From: an uncultured Candidatus Saccharibacteria bacterium | GTDB lineage: Bacteria > Patescibacteriota > UBA1384 > XYA2-FULL-43-10 > 1-14-0-10-43-13 | Reading direction: 5' to 3' | Assembly: GCA_964543385.1 (NCBI GenBank) | Contig: CAZIYE010000001.1 | Coordinates: 420,001-452,000 of the forward strand | Length of the DNA: 32,000 bases | Shown: positions 18,695 to 24,629 of the stretch, piece by piece | How positions within the stretch are numbered: position 1 is the stretch's first letter | How the letters are laid out: each line of letters opens with the position of its first letter | Notes under the pieces: model-generated | Databases searched by the model: none | Seen by the model: only the letters and a program-made list of their open reading frames with translations | Told to the model about the DNA's origin: nothing | Position numbers and translations under genes: made by a program

Positions 18695-20656
18695 TTAGAT
18701 GATGTCCAACAGACACTCCGGTATGTTTTCAATAAATCGTGATTTTGGATTACACTGAAACCGACCGTAGATATTTCTCTCTGTCGCATAAATCATATAT
18801 AAACGCTCTTTTGCCCTAGTAATACCGACATAACAAAGTCTTCGCTCTTCTTCCATCTCAGAGACGTCCATTAAAGCTCGTGAGTGAGGAAATATTCCTT
18901 CCTCAACACCGACAATAAATACGGTCTGAAATTCCAAGCCTTTGGCCGAATGCATGGTCATCAATGTAACGACACCGTCCTCATGATTTATCTGATCAGT
19001 ATCAGAAACCAAAGCTACCTGCTCGAGAAATATATCCAAAACTGTCCTATCTTCTAGATCATCACTTGGAGCTGCTTCATAGTTTGCCTGTATCTGCTCT
19101 GCCACAGTAATTAGCTCAAGGACATTCTCCCACCTTCCTTCCCCTTCAGGTGTGCCGTCAAGAAGAGATTCTTTAAAACCAGTTTTTACCGCTATTTTTG
19201 AGATTAATTGATCTAAGGAAGTAACAAGTGACAGATTATAAAGCTCAGAAATAATTTTGAAGAACTCAACAATCTTAGCAGGAAATTCTTTAGACATTTT
19301 ATCCATTATTTTGTTATCTAAGGGACTTGTATCCTCAGTGTTTTGAGAAAAAAATTCCCTTATCTTTTCGACTGTTTTGTCTCCAATACCGCGCGATGGA
19401 GCAGCAACCAATCTGGCAAAAGCCTCCATGTCCTTCGGATTGGCTAGAAAACGTAGATAAGCGATCATATCCTTGATCTCTTTGCGCTCATAGAAACGGA
19501 CGCCGCCGACAACCTTATATGGGATCTTAAATCTTAGGAATGCTTCTTCTATAGCTCGAGATTGCGCGTTCGTCCTATACAAAACAGCGAAACTATTATA
19601 ATCAGCGCCTCTATTATGCAGCGACCTTACCTCCATAGCCACAAATTCGGCCTCATCTTTTTCATTTAAGGCCTCATAAATTGTAATCGGCGTCCCTTCG
19701 GAGTTTTCTGTCCAAAGCTTTTTATCTGTTTTATTTTCGTTAAACTTAATAACATCATTTGCAGCAGCAAGAATTGTTTTTGTTGACCGATAATTTTGTT
19801 CAAGCTTTATTACTTTTGAGTCTTTATAATCCTTCTCGAAATTTAAGATGTTACGAAAATTTGCACCTCTCCACGAGTAAATTGATTGATAATCATCGCC
19901 GACCACCATAATGTTTCGATGCTTTGAAGCCAGCAATTTAGTCCAGAGATACTGAGCTTGATTTGTATCCTGATACTCATCAATTAAAATGTATTTAAAT
20001 AAATTCTGATATTTCTCTAAAACTGATGGATTGTTTTGGAATAAAAATACACACTGCATTATCAAATCATCAAAGTCCATTGCATTAGCCTCTTTGAGAT
20101 ACCGCTCATACCGCTCAAAAACTTGTGAGGTCACTTTTTCGAAAGGAGAATTTATATATTTCTTATATCCTGTGGCATCAATCAACTCATTCTTCGCCCC
20201 CGAAATAAAATAAGAGATCGATTTTGGATTGAAATTCTTTGGATCAATATTTAGTTCTTTCATTATCCTTTTAATAATAGAAAGCTGATCGTTGTCATCA
20301 TAAATAGTAAAGCTCTTTGAATAACCCACATAGTCGGCCTCACGACGCAAAATCCTGACACAAATTGAATGAAATGTCCCAAGCCAAGGCAAGCGATAAT
20401 TTAGTTCATCCCCGGCCCTCTCACCGACAATAAGCTTAGCGACTCTCTTCTCCATTTCTTTGGCAGCCTTGTTCGTAAAAGTCACTGCCAAAATATGATA
20501 AGGCGAAACCTTTTTTTCTTTAATAAGATAGGCAATCCTATGAGTCAAAGCCTTTGTCTTGCCGCTACCAGCTCCGGCCAAAACAAGCAGGGGGCCCTCA
20601 GTCGTCATTACAGCATCAAGCTGTGGCTCATTTAGATTTTGTAATAATTCATTCAC
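18695..20656 (-). CDS. pcrA: ATP-dependent DNA helicase PcrA/UvrD (SF1)
   Basis: 'LNEPQLDAV', Walker A 'AGAGSGKTKALTHRIAYLI', 'TFTNKAAKEM', 'ILIDEYQDTN', 'VGDDYQSIYSWRGA', 'LEQNYRST', 'TMHSAKGLEF' and 'RRLCYVGITRAKE'. The start codon is GTG, with AAGGG upstream. Confidence 0.92.
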   Translation of the reverse strand: MNELLQNLNEPQLDAVMTTEGPLLVLAGAGSGKTKALTHRIAYLIKEKKVSPYHILAVTFTNKAAKEMEKRVAKLIVGERAGDELNYRLPWLGTFHSICVRILRREADYVGYSKSFTIYDDNDQLSIIKRIMKELNIDPKNFNPKSISYFISGAKNELIDATGYKKYINSPFEKVTSQVFERYERYLKEANAMDFDDLIMQCVFLFQNNPSVLEKYQNLFKYILIDEYQDTNQAQYLWTKLLASKHRNIMVVGDDYQSIYSWRGANFRNILNFEKDYKDSKVIKLEQNYRSTKTILAAANDVIKFNENKTDKKLWTENSEGTPITIYEALNEKDEAEFVAMEVRSLHNRGADYNSFAVLYRTNAQSRAIEEAFLRFKIPYKVVGGVRFYERKEIKDMIAYLRFLANPKDMEAFARLVAAPSRGIGDKTVEKIREFFSQNTEDTSPLDNKIMDKMSKEFPAKIVEFFKIISELYNLSLVTSLDQLISKIAVKTGFKESLLDGTPEGEGRWENVLELITVAEQIQANYEAAPSDDLEDRTVLDIFLEQVALVSDTDQINHEDGVVTLMTMHSAKGLEFQTVFIVGVEEGIFPHSRALMDVSEMEEERRLCYVGITRAKERLYMIYATERNIYGRFQCNPKSRFIENIPECLLDII

Positions 20657-20776
20657 CTGCTTAACCCTTACTGCTTAATTCTTAATTCTGTTCGATTATA
20701 TCGAATATACGAACAAATTCCAAACAAAACATTGTTTCATATTCAACTAAATTATTATTTGCGTTATATTAATTTA

Positions 20777-21475
20777 ATGAGCAAAGTTTTAGTCAGTGTT
20801 ACAACTTTAGAAAATCCCAAATGGGCAAAACAAGTAGAGGATCTGGCAAGATTCAATATAGATGAATTTGCAATTTTTATTTCTTGTTTAAATCCAACCG
20901 AACGTCAAGACCTTTATACTAAGCTTGAGAAGCTTAAATCCATCAAAGTTCCTTTCGCACATATTAGAACAGACGTAAATGATTCAGAACTGGAATATCT
21001 GGTTAAACGATTTGGCCTAGAACTTTGTAATATACATCCGAGTTCGGAGTTTGCCCTGCAATATGAGTGGAAAAAATATCGGAAAATTATACTGATAGAA
21101 AATGTTATACATTCAATAATTGATGAAGAAGAATTAAAAACCTTCGGTGGAATATGCTTGGATACTGCTCATTTAGAAAACCATCGATTATCAGATATGC
21201 CCAAGTACGAATATACTGTAAAACTAATTCAAAAATATTCAGTCAAGGCTAACCATATTAGTGGAATTTTGCATATTCCGGCTCACATAGACACCGGACA
21301 TCCCGAAAGACTTTGTTATGACAATCACGATGTACACTCAATTACTGAATTTAACTATCTAAAAAATTTTCCGAAAGATTACTTTGGCAAATATTTATCA
21401 ATTGAAGTTGGAAATGATATTGAGGCTCAATTAAAGATAAAAGAATATATCAAGAAAGTTCTAAATATTAAGTAA
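20777..21475 (+). CDS. Hypothetical protein, possibly a xylose-isomerase-like TIM barrel (AP-endonuclease-2 superfamily)
   Basis: The start was moved to the ATG at 20777 (MSKVLVSV...). Only weak cues support the family call: 'ICLDTAHLENH', and His/Asp/Glu spaced as in sugar-phosphate isomerase/epimerase barrels. Confidence 0.3.
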   Translation: MSKVLVSVTTLENPKWAKQVEDLARFNIDEFAIFISCLNPTERQDLYTKLEKLKSIKVPFAHIRTDVNDSELEYLVKRFGLELCNIHPSSEFALQYEWKKYRKIILIENVIHSIIDEEELKTFGGICLDTAHLENHRLSDMPKYEYTVKLIQKYSVKANHISGILHIPAHIDTGHPERLCYDNHDVHSITEFNYLKNFPKDYFGKYLSIEVGNDIEAQLKIKEYIKKVLNIK

Positions 21476-21560: not shown

Positions 21561-22817
21561 CTATTTTGTCATTGGCTGCTGCATAATGCTGGCATAGGGC
21601 AGGAAATCACCAACCCACCGCTCAATCGGTGTCGCGTCGAAGATGGTCCTCCCGAGAAGGGCGTTGCCAACGCTGGCAATCGCTTCCTCCATCATCCGAA
21701 TGGAATGAACAGCGGCTTCGCCGATCTGTTTTTTGGTGCGGTAATGCGGAACGAGGTGTGCCTGCCAGGCATCATCATGATCGGCTTTTGCCTGCTCGAT
21801 TGCATCGTAGATACCATAAACACGGAAGATCGCACGTTGGATCTCCTTGTTTGCCGGAATCATGTATACACGCCCATCGGGAGCTGTGTAGGCGAGCATG
21901 ATCCTATTCTCATCGGGATTACAGGCGAAGTCGGTGAAGATCGGGAAACCGTTAACGACCATACCCTCAGTTTTCCCGTCGATGCTCATGAGGCCCAGCG
22001 CCTTGCAGTAATCGCGCTGGTGACGAGCATTCTCTGCCACCGTTTTCCGCCAAGCCATAAAAGCCAGCGGATCAAGGTGCATCATCAGCCGCGCCTCATC
22101 TTCTGTCATAGTAGCATCACCTGCCGGCCGAAACTTCGTGTCGAAATTGATAGCCGGTTCGGCAATCATGTGGCCCGGATTGGGGATACAATCAAGACCG
22201 GCCGCCGCGAGTACCCGCACCATCGCCGGATCTTGCATGATCCCGGGGATAGCCCGAATCTCATCAAGCCCGACAATCGTATCGGCATAAGTAGCGATCT
22301 TCTCATACCGTTCTACCATGTTGGCCGCGCCAAAGATCTTCTTGAAGGTTGAGCTCCCGAGCGGGAACCCCCAACGATGAATACATTCTGCGTCAGCGAC
22401 GAACACGTTGATATCGCCCGAGTTGATCAGTCGGTGATAAATCGCTCGCGTTTCGTCCGTTATCTTATCGCCGAAGACATGGGGGGTTACCCCCAGCTTC
22501 ATAACAATGATATCGGAGAGTTCTCCGCGGTCCATCAACGTCTCCACATCCGTGATCTTACCATCCTTGTCGAGCATACCGGCATAGGTATGTTGGAAAC
22601 CGGCTGCAGAGGCCTGCTCCCAATACCGTGCCGACGTCATCGCCAAAATATAGTTCTTGTCACGGATCTCGATTGGGGGTATTAGCTCCTTGAGATCGCC
22701 GACCGAAAAGCGGCCGGATACCTGCCAGGCGCCAAGCCCCAACGAATTGAACCCCGGCTTTCGAAATAACCGGCCTCCAGGGCTGTCACCCTGAATTTGA
22801 TCTTTCACTGAACCCAT
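21561..22817 (-). CDS. Hypothetical 418-aa protein with a possible SAICAR-synthase-like nucleotide-binding core; GC-rich
   Basis: The ATG at 22817 (MGSVKDQ...) has GAGAGGAAG upstream. 'SIDGKTEGMVVNGFPIFTDFACNPDENRIM' resembles the PurC 'vDfKlEfG....g.vvL.DE..sPD.sR.W' motif (D.K.E.G ... D ... PD..R). The rest was not recognised. A spot GC count on 21601-21660 gives 58%. Confidence 0.3.
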   Translation of the reverse strand: MGSVKDQIQGDSPGGRLFRKPGFNSLGLGAWQVSGRFSVGDLKELIPPIEIRDKNYILAMTSARYWEQASAAGFQHTYAGMLDKDGKITDVETLMDRGELSDIIVMKLGVTPHVFGDKITDETRAIYHRLINSGDINVFVADAECIHRWGFPLGSSTFKKIFGAANMVERYEKIATYADTIVGLDEIRAIPGIMQDPAMVRVLAAAGLDCIPNPGHMIAEPAINFDTKFRPAGDATMTEDEARLMMHLDPLAFMAWRKTVAENARHQRDYCKALGLMSIDGKTEGMVVNGFPIFTDFACNPDENRIMLAYTAPDGRVYMIPANKEIQRAIFRVYGIYDAIEQAKADHDDAWQAHLVPHYRTKKQIGEAAVHSIRMMEEAIASVGNALLGRTIFDATPIERWVGDFLPYASIMQQPMTK

Positions 22818-22972
22818 AATCACTTCCTCTCTCTTTTTCAAGAGATAGTCCATGCATCCATGCAAAAATATCTGACAGAGATCCTACTCGGCCACCAGTT
22901 GGAAAAGTACCTCCTCTAGATTGTATTAGATAACCAAACAAGGCACACACTATGTGCCCTGTTTCCAACTAA

Positions 22973-23001
22973 TGTATACCAAATCAGACAATAAATTTCA
23001 A
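22973..23001 (-). promoter_or_regulatory. Candidate promoter for the 21561-22817 gene
   Basis: The minus strand reads TTGAAA (23001-22996), a 17-nt spacer, then TATACA (22978-22973). The predicted 5' end would fold into the 22936-22964 hairpin (12 bp, one mismatch). Confidence 0.35.
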
Positions 23002-23008
23002 TTTTGAC

Positions 23009-23052
23009 AACTAAAAAATCCCATCTGATTTCTCATTTGGGATTTTTTAGTT
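23009..23052 (-). terminator. Strong A-tract/U-tract hairpin (bidirectional-terminator type)
   Basis: aactaaaaaatccca (23009-23023) pairs with tgggattttttagtt (23038-23052) in a perfect 15-bp stem. On the minus strand the loop can add a 3-bp TGA/TCA helix capped by GAAA. The 3' arm ends in GGGAUUUUUU. Confidence 0.6.
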
Positions 23053-23567
23053 CGGGCAGAAGTGATTTACGGACTAATTGGAAATTAGTTTTTTAATAAT
23101 ATTCCAGCCGCGTCAACTTATGCCCTCCATAAGAGGCTTTGATATTGTGTCTCCGCCAAAAGATTTGTGATCCCTTGATAGAAACTATCTTGTCCTCTTA
23201 AATTTCTTGTTTGTGTCATGAACTTGGCGGGTCAAATTTCAATTCAAACCCGGTCAGACACTTTTTTATTTTCGAGTAATCCCTTTGAAGGATATATATC
23301 TTCCAAAAGAATATTACTTCATCTTGCTAATTTCTTAGCAAGAATGAGCTGGGGAGGAGTTCTTTCACCGATTCACTTTTGAAGTGACTTTGTAAAAGAT
23401 TCGATAACCATTAATTTTCTAGATTATTTCCTCCTCTCAAGAGTAAGGTAGGGGTGGACCTTTCTCTTGTCCCATCTCATTCTAGCTAAAGAAAAAGACA
23501 TTCCGGAAGGAATGCCAATTTTGCGATTCCCTCCAAGCACTTATTTGATTGTTAATGTACTACTAAA
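23053..23567 (-). ncRNA. Candidate ~0.5-kb non-coding transcript of unknown class, running from its own promoter to the terminator
   Basis: No ORF of 60 aa or more exists on either strand between 22969 and 23670. A near-consensus promoter lies at 23575-23603 and a terminator at 23009-23052. Several perfect local hairpins occur: tcttgctaa/ttagcaaga at 23322-23343 and cattcc-GGAA-ggaatg at ~23499-23514. No Rfam-type motif was recognised by eye. Confidence 0.3.
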
Positions 23568-23574
23568 TTAAACC

Positions 23575-23603
23575 ATTGTATCAATTAGAACACATCTTGT
23601 CAA
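23575..23603 (-). promoter_or_regulatory. Near-consensus sigma70 promoter firing into the ORF-free region
   Basis: The minus strand reads TTGACA (23603-23598), a 17-nt spacer, then TACAAT (23580-23575). Confidence 0.5.
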
Positions 23604-23670
23604 TAGTATGCTTGCAAATTTACACACCTATAAATAAATATTTAATATAGGACTTAGTAATTTTTAAAAA

Positions 23671-24075
23671 TTATTCCCCTGCCCCTGGAGAATATTGGCC
23701 AAAACCATTTCTGTTTTCAAAGTTTGATTTTTTTGGCAGCAGCTTTGCGCTGACAACAAATTTCCTATTAGCAATTTCGTCAGTCTGGCTCTCCTGATAA
23801 AACTGCATTAGCTCTGCTGATAAAATTTCTTTCAGCGTCGACATTTCTTCCATATTATTCTTTATATTAGCTAGTACTTCTTGATTTGGACCCTTGCCCA
23901 AAATCTCATCCTTAATCTGCTTCTTTTTCTGGCCTGCAGCTTTAGTTTCCTCGGCAGCTTCTAAATATGCCAAATCATTCTCCAATTCACCCTTCAGCAT
24001 TTCCTTTGAGATTTTCACCTCTTCCTGTAATTTTTCTAGTTGATCGATCCTTTTTTGAATAGTCGTCAAATCCAT
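23671..24075 (-). CDS. Hypothetical coiled-coil protein (134 aa)
   Basis: The composition is Lys/Glu-rich and heptad-like (IQKRIDQLEKLQEEVKISKEMLKGELENDLAYLEAAEE...). Base composition is backbone-like. No family was recognised. Confidence 0.55.
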   Translation of the reverse strand: MDLTTIQKRIDQLEKLQEEVKISKEMLKGELENDLAYLEAAEETKAAGQKKKQIKDEILGKGPNQEVLANIKNNMEEMSTLKEILSAELMQFYQESQTDEIANRKFVVSAKLLPKKSNFENRNGFGQYSPGAGE

Positions 24076-24119
24076 GACAAAAATCTCCGATTAAATATTA
24101 TCGCTCCTGCATTACATAA

Positions 24120-24629
24120 TTATTCTTTATTATGTAAAAAAAGAGTATTTTTTAAAACTTCTACAATTTCTTTCTCAACAAATTCTTGGGTAATCTGGTC
24201 TGGAGTATATTCGCCATGCGACCCGACTACGCCTCCCTCAGACGGCATCATTGTTGATACCATAATGCCAATCTTTTTAGCATAACGATTTGCTATAAAA
24301 GAAATATAGGGCGTACACTCCGGCTTATATAGGGATTTATCAAGAGAAGCAGGATAAATATTCAGAGTAATACTGGCGGGCAGGAAATTAGCAGTGGCGT
24401 CAACATATTCTTCCTCTTCAGAAACATGAAAATCATGCTTATACTGATTCATTTGGTTGCCAACATCGACGATAACTGGCCATATAACTTCTTGTTTTAA
24501 GCGCTCAAATTCTGTCATAAATTTGTCTTGCTCAGCCTTCTCTTGAGCCTTCTCTGCTTGCAAACCATCAATGTCGTTATCAAAACGACTCATTATATTG
24601 TCAAGCTCCTTCTTGTTTTCAAAAAGCAT
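24120..24629 (-). CDS. Hypothetical protein (169 aa): N-terminal coiled coil plus a C-terminal globular domain
   Basis: AAGGGAG SD upstream of the ATG. Residues 1-45 are Glu/Lys-rich, followed by a mixed alpha/beta-looking domain. No family was recognised. Confidence 0.55.
   Translation of the reverse strand: MLFENKKELDNIMSRFDNDIDGLQAEKAQEKAEQDKFMTEFERLKQEVIWPVIVDVGNQMNQYKHDFHVSEEEEYVDATANFLPASITLNIYPASLDKSLYKPECTPYISFIANRYAKKIGIMVSTMMPSEGGVVGSHGEYTPDQITQEFVEKEIVEVLKNTLFLHNKE

Follow-up and report, generated by a model that had tools for sequence, protein, structure and literature searches.

A candidate family of large structured non-coding RNAs in Berkelbacteria, recognized from a promoter-to-terminator unit without a conserved open reading frame

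The present study dealt with a 32,000-nt window (contig CAZIYE010000001.1, positions 420,001 to 452,000) of a Candidatus Saccharibacteria genome (designated G000; 0.9 Mb, 38% GC, 98.7% complete, four contigs) and, within it, with a candidate RNA gene on the minus strand at positions 23009-23603, in which approximately 555 nt lie between a promoter and a terminator. From comparative sequence analyses, we consider this unit very likely to be an independent gene for a structured non-coding RNA (ncRNA) that belongs to an undescribed family. An earlier note, made from the sequence of this stretch, had proposed that a large structured ncRNA of unknown class is encoded between a promoter and a terminator, and this proposal is supported by the conservation and covariation described below, by the promoters of homologues, and by the absence of a match in Rfam. 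The same note had stated that no open reading frame (ORF) of 60 aa or more is present in the region 22969-23670, which is correct, the longest ORF that touches this region being 54 aa (23218-23382, plus strand). The features of the locus are listed in Table 1.

Table 1. Features of the candidate RNA gene and its surroundings (positions in the window; RNA pairings and control elements are predicted).
Feature	Positions	Strand	Remarks
Sigma-70-type promoter	23575..23603	-	TTGACA, 17-nt spacer, TG-extended TACAAT
Conserved 5' single-stranded motif	23549..23558	-	ACAUUAACAA; kept in families f1 and f4
Shine-Dalgarno-like GGAGGG, antiterminator strand	23529..23534	-	GGAGG-type motif in leaders
Terminator-like hairpin	23488..23516	-	GGCAUUCC-UUCC-GGAAUGUC, then UUUUUCUUU; 5' arm AUUCCUUCC complementary to GGAGGGAAU
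X, 5' strand of long-range helix P2	23471..23490	-	UUUAGCUAGAAUGAGAUGGG
P2a hairpin	23438..23469	-	UCCACCCCUA; C-rich loop
P2b helix	23354..23436	-	GAGGAG/CUCCUC; encloses P2c and optional P2d
P2c hairpin	23404-23427	-	Loop with UAAAAU
P2d optional hairpin	23362-23398	-	Some genera only
Y, 3' strand of P2	23335..23353	-	CCCAGCUCAUUCUUGCUAA
P3, alternative local hairpin	23322..23343	-	3' half of Y with X' (UUAGCAAGA)
P4, species-specific hairpin	23275..23318	-	In A-rich variable linker; from folding
M', weak upstream second copy of M	23213..23261	-	GUGUCUGA-CCGGGU-loop-ACCCG-CCAAGU-UCAUGACAC
3' domain, first half	23130..23200	-	Helix UAAGAGG/CCUCUUA enclosing a long G.U-rich hairpin (23150-23182)
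Module M, family core	23054..23125	-	Three nested helices; apical loop AUUAUUAAAAAA, internal loop AUUAGU
Intrinsic terminator	23009..23052	-	15-bp stem, A6 on 5' side, U6 on 3' side
Promoter-like site for next gene	22972..23001	-	TTGAAA, 17-nt spacer, TATACA; read from sequence
Leader of inserted gene	22820-22970	-	About 150 nt; strong hairpin GGAAACAGGGCACAUAGUGUGUGCCUUGUUUGG
Inserted gene	21561-22865	-	418-434 aa; between RNA gene and pcrA
Inserted gene	20732-21475	+	247 aa; between RNA gene and pcrA
pcrA, UvrD/PcrA-type helicase gene	18695..20656	-	Downstream of RNA gene, two genes between
p134	23674-24075	-	Coiled-coil-like, rich in Lys and Glu; no Pfam family
p169	24123-24629	-	Conserved protein; no Pfam family

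Regarding the boundaries of the unit, the minus-strand promoter described in the earlier note is present, scores 11/12 with a TG extension, and is the best among eight promoter-like sites in the region 22500-24200, for which shuffled sequences gave a mean of 4.1 sites scoring at least 9/12; the transcript is predicted to start at an A near position 23568. A TTGACA-type consensus promoter occurs at the matching place in 37 of 41 homologues. The hairpin at the other end also has the 15-bp stem with A- and U-tracts and the GAAA-capped inner helix that had been claimed for it (tip UGA-GAAA-UCA), and, as A6 and U6 flank the stem, this terminator is predicted to act in both directions. Homologues finish in comparable hairpins, and in family f4 the outer helix of module M, followed by a U-tract, takes the role of the terminator. 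The separate promoter that had been expected for the next gene corresponds to a promoter-like site immediately beyond the terminator (Table 1), and comparable sites follow the RNA in G035 and G031.

The RNA promoter is 80% identical over 46 nt to a sequence elsewhere in the same genome (G000:C1:666454-666499), which is located directly upstream of a tRNA gene (C1:666310-666385), and similar promoter-only matches were found in relatives. This suggests that the RNA gene and the tRNA gene share a promoter type suited to the strong expression of stable RNAs.

A folding energy of -173.6 kcal/mol was obtained for the minus strand of the unit (z = -8.5 relative to 100 dinucleotide shuffles), compared with -145 kcal/mol for the plus strand (z = -3.8), which argues for an RNA transcribed from the minus strand. 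The same strand is indicated by the many G.U pairs, such as 35 U.G pairs in one alignment column, which would be C.A on the other strand. Contrary to expectation, no enrichment in GC was observed (35-36% in the RNA region versus 38% in the genome). Every local stem named in the earlier note was found and belongs to a conserved helix: the 9-bp stem at 23322-23343 is the alternative hairpin P3, the stem capped by GGAA/UUCC (noted at approximately 23499-23514) is located at 23497-23516 and is the terminator-like hairpin that precedes UUUUUCUUU, the 6-bp stem at approximately 23372-23388 is the tip of the optional hairpin P2d, and the complementary segments GAGGAG and CUCCUC (23431-23436 and 23354-23359) form helix P2b. 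In our structural model, the RNA is modular and consists of an optional 5' module, a junction domain closed by P2, A-rich linkers, and a 3' domain that ends in module M.

The 3' domain was initially modeled by RNAalifold on the last 165 nt of 11 sequences, which gave 40 pairs, 18 of which showed compensatory changes. The covariance model built from this alignment (R1) gathered 41 homologues, among which 93.5% of alignment cells were paired, versus 41-56% when the partners were slid by one to three columns. Changes on both sides were noted in 35 of the 40 pairs, including compensatory changes in 11/13 pairs of helix 4, and the observed values were reached by 0 of 500 shuffles. In order to avoid a bias from fitting sequences to the model, module M was re-aligned by plain MAFFT (terminal 72-80 nt, 31 distinct sequences) and scored against a hand-written structure; 90.3% of cells were paired, versus 35-49% in the slid controls, and compensatory changes were present in 17 of 20 pairs.

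Module M is a compact core of 72 nt, the family consensus of which has the apical loop AAUAAUUAAAA, the most conserved single-stranded stretch of the RNA, and a conserved 3'-side internal loop, AUAAGU (AUUAGU in G000). It is unique in G000, with a score of 82 bits and a next-best match of 17 bits. Larger versions of the RNA additionally contain the weak second copy M', which in G000 scores 24.9 bits with the model R2 described below and shows visible covariation in its stem; matching second copies were found in G002, G008, G009, and G019 (21-34 bits).

In terms of distribution, the conservation check suggested in the earlier note was performed by a blastn comparison with 40 relatives, and revealed collinear conserved blocks in at least 12 genera, with insertions of very different lengths between them; overall, this block-wise conservation of the unit extends to more than 40 genomes. 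Among the 44 genomes of the order, 41 gave a strong match with R1, as did 33/33 high-quality ones, with one match per genome. A second model (R2), based on the 41 sequences, gave weaker, single matches over the full length in 17 further genomes of this class and no match in 144 genomes from other classes of the phylum. With a model of module M alone (R3), exactly one match was obtained in each of 32 of the 33 genomes sampled from the order; in other orders, 19 of 118 genomes were matched, also once each, and these were concentrated in a small number of families. When a strict 23-base pattern derived from M was used, 17 metagenome contigs were retrieved from JGI and ENA, all of which carry the whole 3' domain (113-147 bits), and the Y motif was found in public records of Candidatus Berkelbacteria as well as in third-party annotation (TPA) assemblies of Saccharibacteria or Patescibacteria. 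The length of the RNA up to the end of M ranges between approximately 360 and 780 nt. Phage and plasmid collections contained no match to the RNA, and an origin from a mobile element was rejected on this basis.

These results demonstrate that nearly all genomes of one order of Patescibacteria, namely, the ultra-small Berkelbacteria of the candidate phyla radiation (CPR), carry a single copy of the RNA, and that its core M recurs in some other families of the class. Since the RNA was found in all good genomes of this order, whose genomes of approximately 0.9 Mb contain little dispensable DNA, it is very likely to play an important role, and probably performs a housekeeping job.

Upstream of the 3' domain, strands X and Y pair at 17-19 of approximately 20 positions in 28/28 genomes (families f1, f2, and f3) to form the long-range helix P2, in which 7 of 17 pairs are compensatory and an A.G mismatch is kept in 27/28 genomes. 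MAFFT combined with RNAalifold failed to align the hairpins inside P2, and their description is based on 28 independent single-sequence folds, all of which gave the same two arms, P2a and the long hairpin P2b/P2c, with stem sequences that differ between homologues. P2a with a CCC-containing loop was predicted in each of the 28 homologues. The presence of P2d in some genera only is typical of the variable insertions of structured RNAs. The copy in the congener G001 (L002/L065) has a run of 10 N inside P2a, which may be an assembly gap. Tertiary pairing between the C-rich loop of P2a and either GGAGG or G-runs in the 3' domain, as well as a GNRA receptor and a k-turn in module M, were considered by eye and rejected as inconsistent across homologues.

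The 3' half of Y has an alternative partner, X', with which it would form the local hairpin P3. X' tracks the changes in Y in 25 of 28 genomes (CUUGC/GCAAG, CCUAC/GUAGG, CUAGC/GCUAG, CUUAC/GUAAG, and CCUGC/GCAGG); when individual Y:X' helices were compared with shuffled flanks, none was significant alone, and the support for this pairing is its covariation across genomes. The predicted equilibrium favors X:Y in 23/23 genomes (mean pairing probabilities of 0.85 versus 0.03), which argues against Y:X' as an equilibrium switch. Any switch to Y:X' would thus need a trigger, such as cleavage or a bound factor, and, as X:Y is favored and X' nevertheless covaries with Y, X' makes sense only if X is removed or occupied. 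The linkers carry zero to four hairpins, depending on the genome.

The 5' module has the anatomy of a terminator/antiterminator pair, termination itself being predicted. A GGAGG(G) motif is present in the first 30-150 nt of 34 of 40 homologue leaders, mostly in the loop of a small hairpin with a covarying stem, and a terminator-like hairpin with a U-tract was found in 30 of 40 leaders, 29 of which also have GGAGG. The GGAGG 7-mer can pair with 5-7 nt of the 5' arm of the hairpin in 28 of these 29 leaders, and the hairpin sequences differ; the minimum-energy fold of the whole RNA in G000 adopts this antiterminator pairing. In family f4, the 5' motif ACAUUAACAA is, as read from the sequence, complementary to UUGUUAAU, which comes after the terminator-like hairpin. 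The spacer between the GGAGG hairpin and the terminator-like hairpin in f4 (L082, L085, and L091) is 60-130 nt long and U/G-rich, with frames of 4-54 codons that are rich in Cys, Phe, Leu, and Val codons, and the spacer at the same place in f1 and f2 is A-rich.

The Shine-Dalgarno-like character of GGAGG also raises the question of a dual-function RNA, in which a short peptide is translated from this site and its translation controls the terminator-like hairpin by leader-peptide attenuation. According to our own reading, UUG, AUG, or GUG follows GGAGG at a distance of 6-13 nt in many homologues, and the frame passes through the hairpin in some f4 genomes. We regard this explanation as improbable because the frames vary between 4 and 54 codons and show no relationship across genera, the congener G001 has lost the start codon (UUG to AAG), no ORF is conserved anywhere in the RNA, and GGAGG lies within the loop of a covarying hairpin in most homologues. 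A 10-codon ORF through the 5' hairpin seemed to be conserved in three genera and was discarded after its start codon was found to be lost in the congener; in our reading, this ORF results from the conservation of the hairpin together with the U-tract and the UAG in strand X.

A protein-coding origin of the region also needed to be considered because plus-strand frame 1 is open between 23182 and 23568 except for two stops, a count given in the earlier note and reproduced exactly, from which a decayed plus-strand gene had been suggested as an alternative. This suggestion was not borne out. Between G000 and its congener, substitutions in this frame are distributed as 15/11/13 over the three codon positions, showing no codon-position bias, and several indels of 1-2 nt are present; a Pfam search of the plus-strand read-through translation gave no match. 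Among the 41 homologues, no ORF with a constant position or length was found on either strand, antisense ORFs included, and three lack any sense-strand ORF of at least 30 aa. Moreover, a decayed gene cannot explain order-wide conservation with compensatory changes in pairs. The pseudogene explanation is effectively refuted, with a residual probability that is close to nil. The unit has its own promoter and terminator, lacks a conserved ORF, and shows compensatory changes in its helices, as is characteristic of a gene for a structured ncRNA.

Regarding known RNA families, the Rfam check suggested in the earlier note was performed with Rfam 15 (4227 covariance models), which gave no match at the gathering score in the 32-kb window; at E values up to 10, only chance-level matches to microRNA or small RNA (sRNA) models were obtained in the region 22850-23750, and 15 homologous loci had no match in common. 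In agreement with that note, which recognized no signature of RNase P, transfer-messenger RNA (tmRNA), signal recognition particle (SRP) RNA, or 6S RNA, covariance-model searches did not identify any of these at the locus. The RNase P RNA and tmRNA of the genome are located elsewhere (G000:C2:94699-95025, 186.6 bits, and C2:32381-32768, 106.7 bits), which excludes these two identities, and an ARAGORN scan for tRNA and tmRNA found nothing in the window. SRP RNA was rejected because the models RF00169 and RF01854 had no match at the locus or anywhere in G000. SRP_SPB and SRP54 domains (Ffh or FtsY) were not found in G000 either, and E. coli Ffh gave no match in this genome by tblastn or phmmer, while the controls rpsP and trmD did. 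PF00448 gave only weak P-loop matches in 31 genomes of the order, and a real match was noted in only 1 of 151 genomes sampled across the class. CsrA (PF02599) and Hfq (PF17209) were not found in G000, which argues against a Csr-type sponge or an Hfq-dependent sRNA. Full-text searches of the literature retrieved no description of such an RNA in Berkelbacteria or the CPR.

The identity with 6S RNA itself was rejected because RF00013 had no match and covariation supports a structure of several domains. Whether the RNA is an analogue of 6S RNA in function is a separate issue: it may serve as a decoy for RNA polymerase or a sigma factor, with the loop of module M mimicking single-stranded promoter DNA. 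This loop contains AUAAU, the last five bases of the -10 hexamer, within the most conserved single-stranded stretch of the RNA, and the larger versions have a weaker second copy of the module. Similar to 6S RNA, the present RNA appears to be an abundant, stand-alone housekeeping RNA with a strong promoter, one copy per genome, and an order-wide distribution, and no 6S RNA is detectable in G000. However, the RF00013 model detects 6S RNA in only 5 of 14 control genomes, and, thus, a missing 6S RNA says little; furthermore, 6S RNA is a single rod of approximately 185 nt with a central bubble, whereas the present RNA has several independent domains over 360-780 nt, and the likeness to a -10 element is one possible reading of an AT-rich loop. 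A role as a 6S analogue is therefore considered to be quite unlikely.

Among the large orphan RNAs, OLE, GOLLD, ROOL, and raiA were each rejected as identities because of the lack of an Rfam match, the neighboring genes (p134/p169 or pcrA), and the absence from phage and plasmid collections. OLE RNA (RF01071) may be the best analogy for how the present RNA works. Both are well-conserved, multi-domain RNAs of approximately 600 nt with one copy per genome, each confined to one bacterial lineage and a fairly constant genomic position, and the function of OLE was long obscure before it was found to be exerted as a complex with proteins (OapA/B/C). On the other hand, OLE occurs beside oapA in anaerobic or extremophilic Firmicutes and has no sequence or structural match to the present RNA, which has no constant protein-coding partner and whose usual neighbor is pcrA. 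GOLLD (RF01998) and ROOL (RF03087) are also large orphan structured RNAs discovered by comparative genomics, with many covarying helices and variable insertions; however, their distribution is patchy, often on prophages or by tRNA genes, and they show no Rfam match to the present RNA, which is chromosomal, single-copy, present in 33/33 good genomes, not found in phage or plasmid collections, and AT-rich (35% GC) with long A-rich linkers. In its 5' module, the RNA resembles attenuators and riboswitch platforms, as a hairpin with a U-tract is accompanied by an upstream strand that may pair with the 5' arm, and strand Y similarly has two mutually exclusive partners. It differs from these systems in that Rfam found no known aptamer upstream, the controlled element would be the body of an ncRNA rather than an ORF, and the role of the antiterminator strand falls to a Shine-Dalgarno-like GGAGG within a hairpin loop.

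Considering the genomic context, gene order places the ancestral site of the RNA gene directly in front of the pcrA/uvrD helicase gene. Among the loci of the order, 12 of 30 have pcrA downstream in the same orientation, as do 11 of 17 metagenome contigs (97-1941 nt away) and 4 of 12 distant homologues. In G000, two genes intervene (Table 1). The gene at 21561-22865 has a GC content of 52-57% versus 38% in the genome, belongs to no Pfam family, and is absent from the congener locus; in view of its GC content, it is likely to be a recent insert, and, with the 247-aa plus-strand gene, it resembles a recent insertion that separates pcrA from the RNA gene. In the leader of the minus-strand gene, there are a strong hairpin, GGAAACAGGGCACAUAGUGUGUGCCUUGUUUGG, and a GGAGG that lies far upstream of the actual ribosome-binding site. 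Pfam searches assigned no family to the genes neighboring the RNA. The two genes upstream, p134 and p169, occur in this position in only approximately 11 genera, which make up a portion of family f1; of the 44 genomes of the order, 31 encode p134, in one copy each. A replication-origin context was rejected because there were no DnaA boxes near the RNA.

The frequent proximity to pcrA makes a very long cis-acting leader of pcrA/uvrD, or a descendant of such a leader, the main rival to a trans-acting RNA. The terminal helix of M and the U-tract would then constitute a terminator under regulation, with the expression of pcrA depending on read-through. In addition to the gene order described above, this explanation is consistent with the situation in f4, in which the outer helix of M is directly followed by a U-tract approximately 50-100 nt before pcrA, and with the presence of two terminator-like elements and alternative pairings in the RNA. 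On the other hand, in G000 and approximately ten other genera, other genes, some on the opposite strand, intervene between the RNA and pcrA, and the RNA is equally conserved there and has its own strong terminator. Promoter-like sites are located between the RNA and the next gene, a consensus, tRNA-like promoter is odd for a helicase gene, and it is unusual for a leader with a constant 3' end to have a length of 360-780 nt. Since the promoter, terminator, and sequence are kept away from pcrA and promoter-like sites follow the terminator, a trans-acting RNA is favored over a leader, which we regard as unlikely.

Regarding the function of this RNA, we tentatively propose a trans-acting scaffold for a ribonucleoprotein, a possibility to which we give some, but clearly less than even, weight, with each of the individual mechanistic steps given below being less probable still. 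The consensus, tRNA-like promoter would ensure that the RNA is made in quantity, and the RNA would act in trans as a stable scaffold for at least one protein in a housekeeping ribonucleoprotein. Its docking surfaces may be the invariant A/U-rich loop and AUAAGU of module M, the A.G mismatch of P2, and the C-rich and UAAAAU loops of the junction domain, with module M as the main docking site. At the 5' module, free GGAGG would pair with the 5' arm of the terminator-like hairpin, which would allow transcription to continue, while a factor bound to GGAGG would cause synthesis to end early; an obvious candidate for this factor is the anti-Shine-Dalgarno end of free 30S subunits. P2, a duplex of 20 bp, may serve as a processing stem for RNase III, for which the genome has a gene; once P2 is cleaved, the remainder of Y would pair with X' to form P3, which would act as a cap at the newly generated 5' end of the 3' fragment. 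The entire proposal, in which the RNA would be the RNA component of a housekeeping ribonucleoprotein specific to this lineage, would rank with 6S or SRP RNA, and would have its synthesis tuned by free 30S subunits through the attenuator, is speculative and carries a rather low probability. Such a core role would be set in a class in which searches found neither an SRP system nor a recognizable 6S RNA.

Several points weigh against the interpretation of the unit as an independent, trans-acting RNA gene. The transcript, its ends, and its processing are all predicted; all of the genomes are metagenome-assembled, and, as they are related, the counts are not independent. The large 3'-domain alignment (A3) was fitted to the model and, thus, favors the structure. 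The frequent position directly upstream of pcrA also fits a cis-acting role, and p134 and p169 were rejected as obligatory partners on account of their limited neighborhood and the absence of p134 from a part of the order. The 5' module is missing in G019, G022, G011, G018, and G009, and, therefore, would be an accessory control device rather than part of the core function.

Large, highly structured bacterial RNAs are rare, and those that have been solved, such as RNase P, tmRNA, 6S, and OLE, each revealed new biochemistry. The comparative set obtained in the present study, comprising more than 55 sequences with strong covariation, a 72-nt core, a putative attenuator, and a potentially bistable helix, makes this RNA directly testable. 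It may also serve as a marker RNA in the annotation of Berkelbacteria, and accounts for the recurrent "empty" gap upstream of pcrA in CPR genomes.

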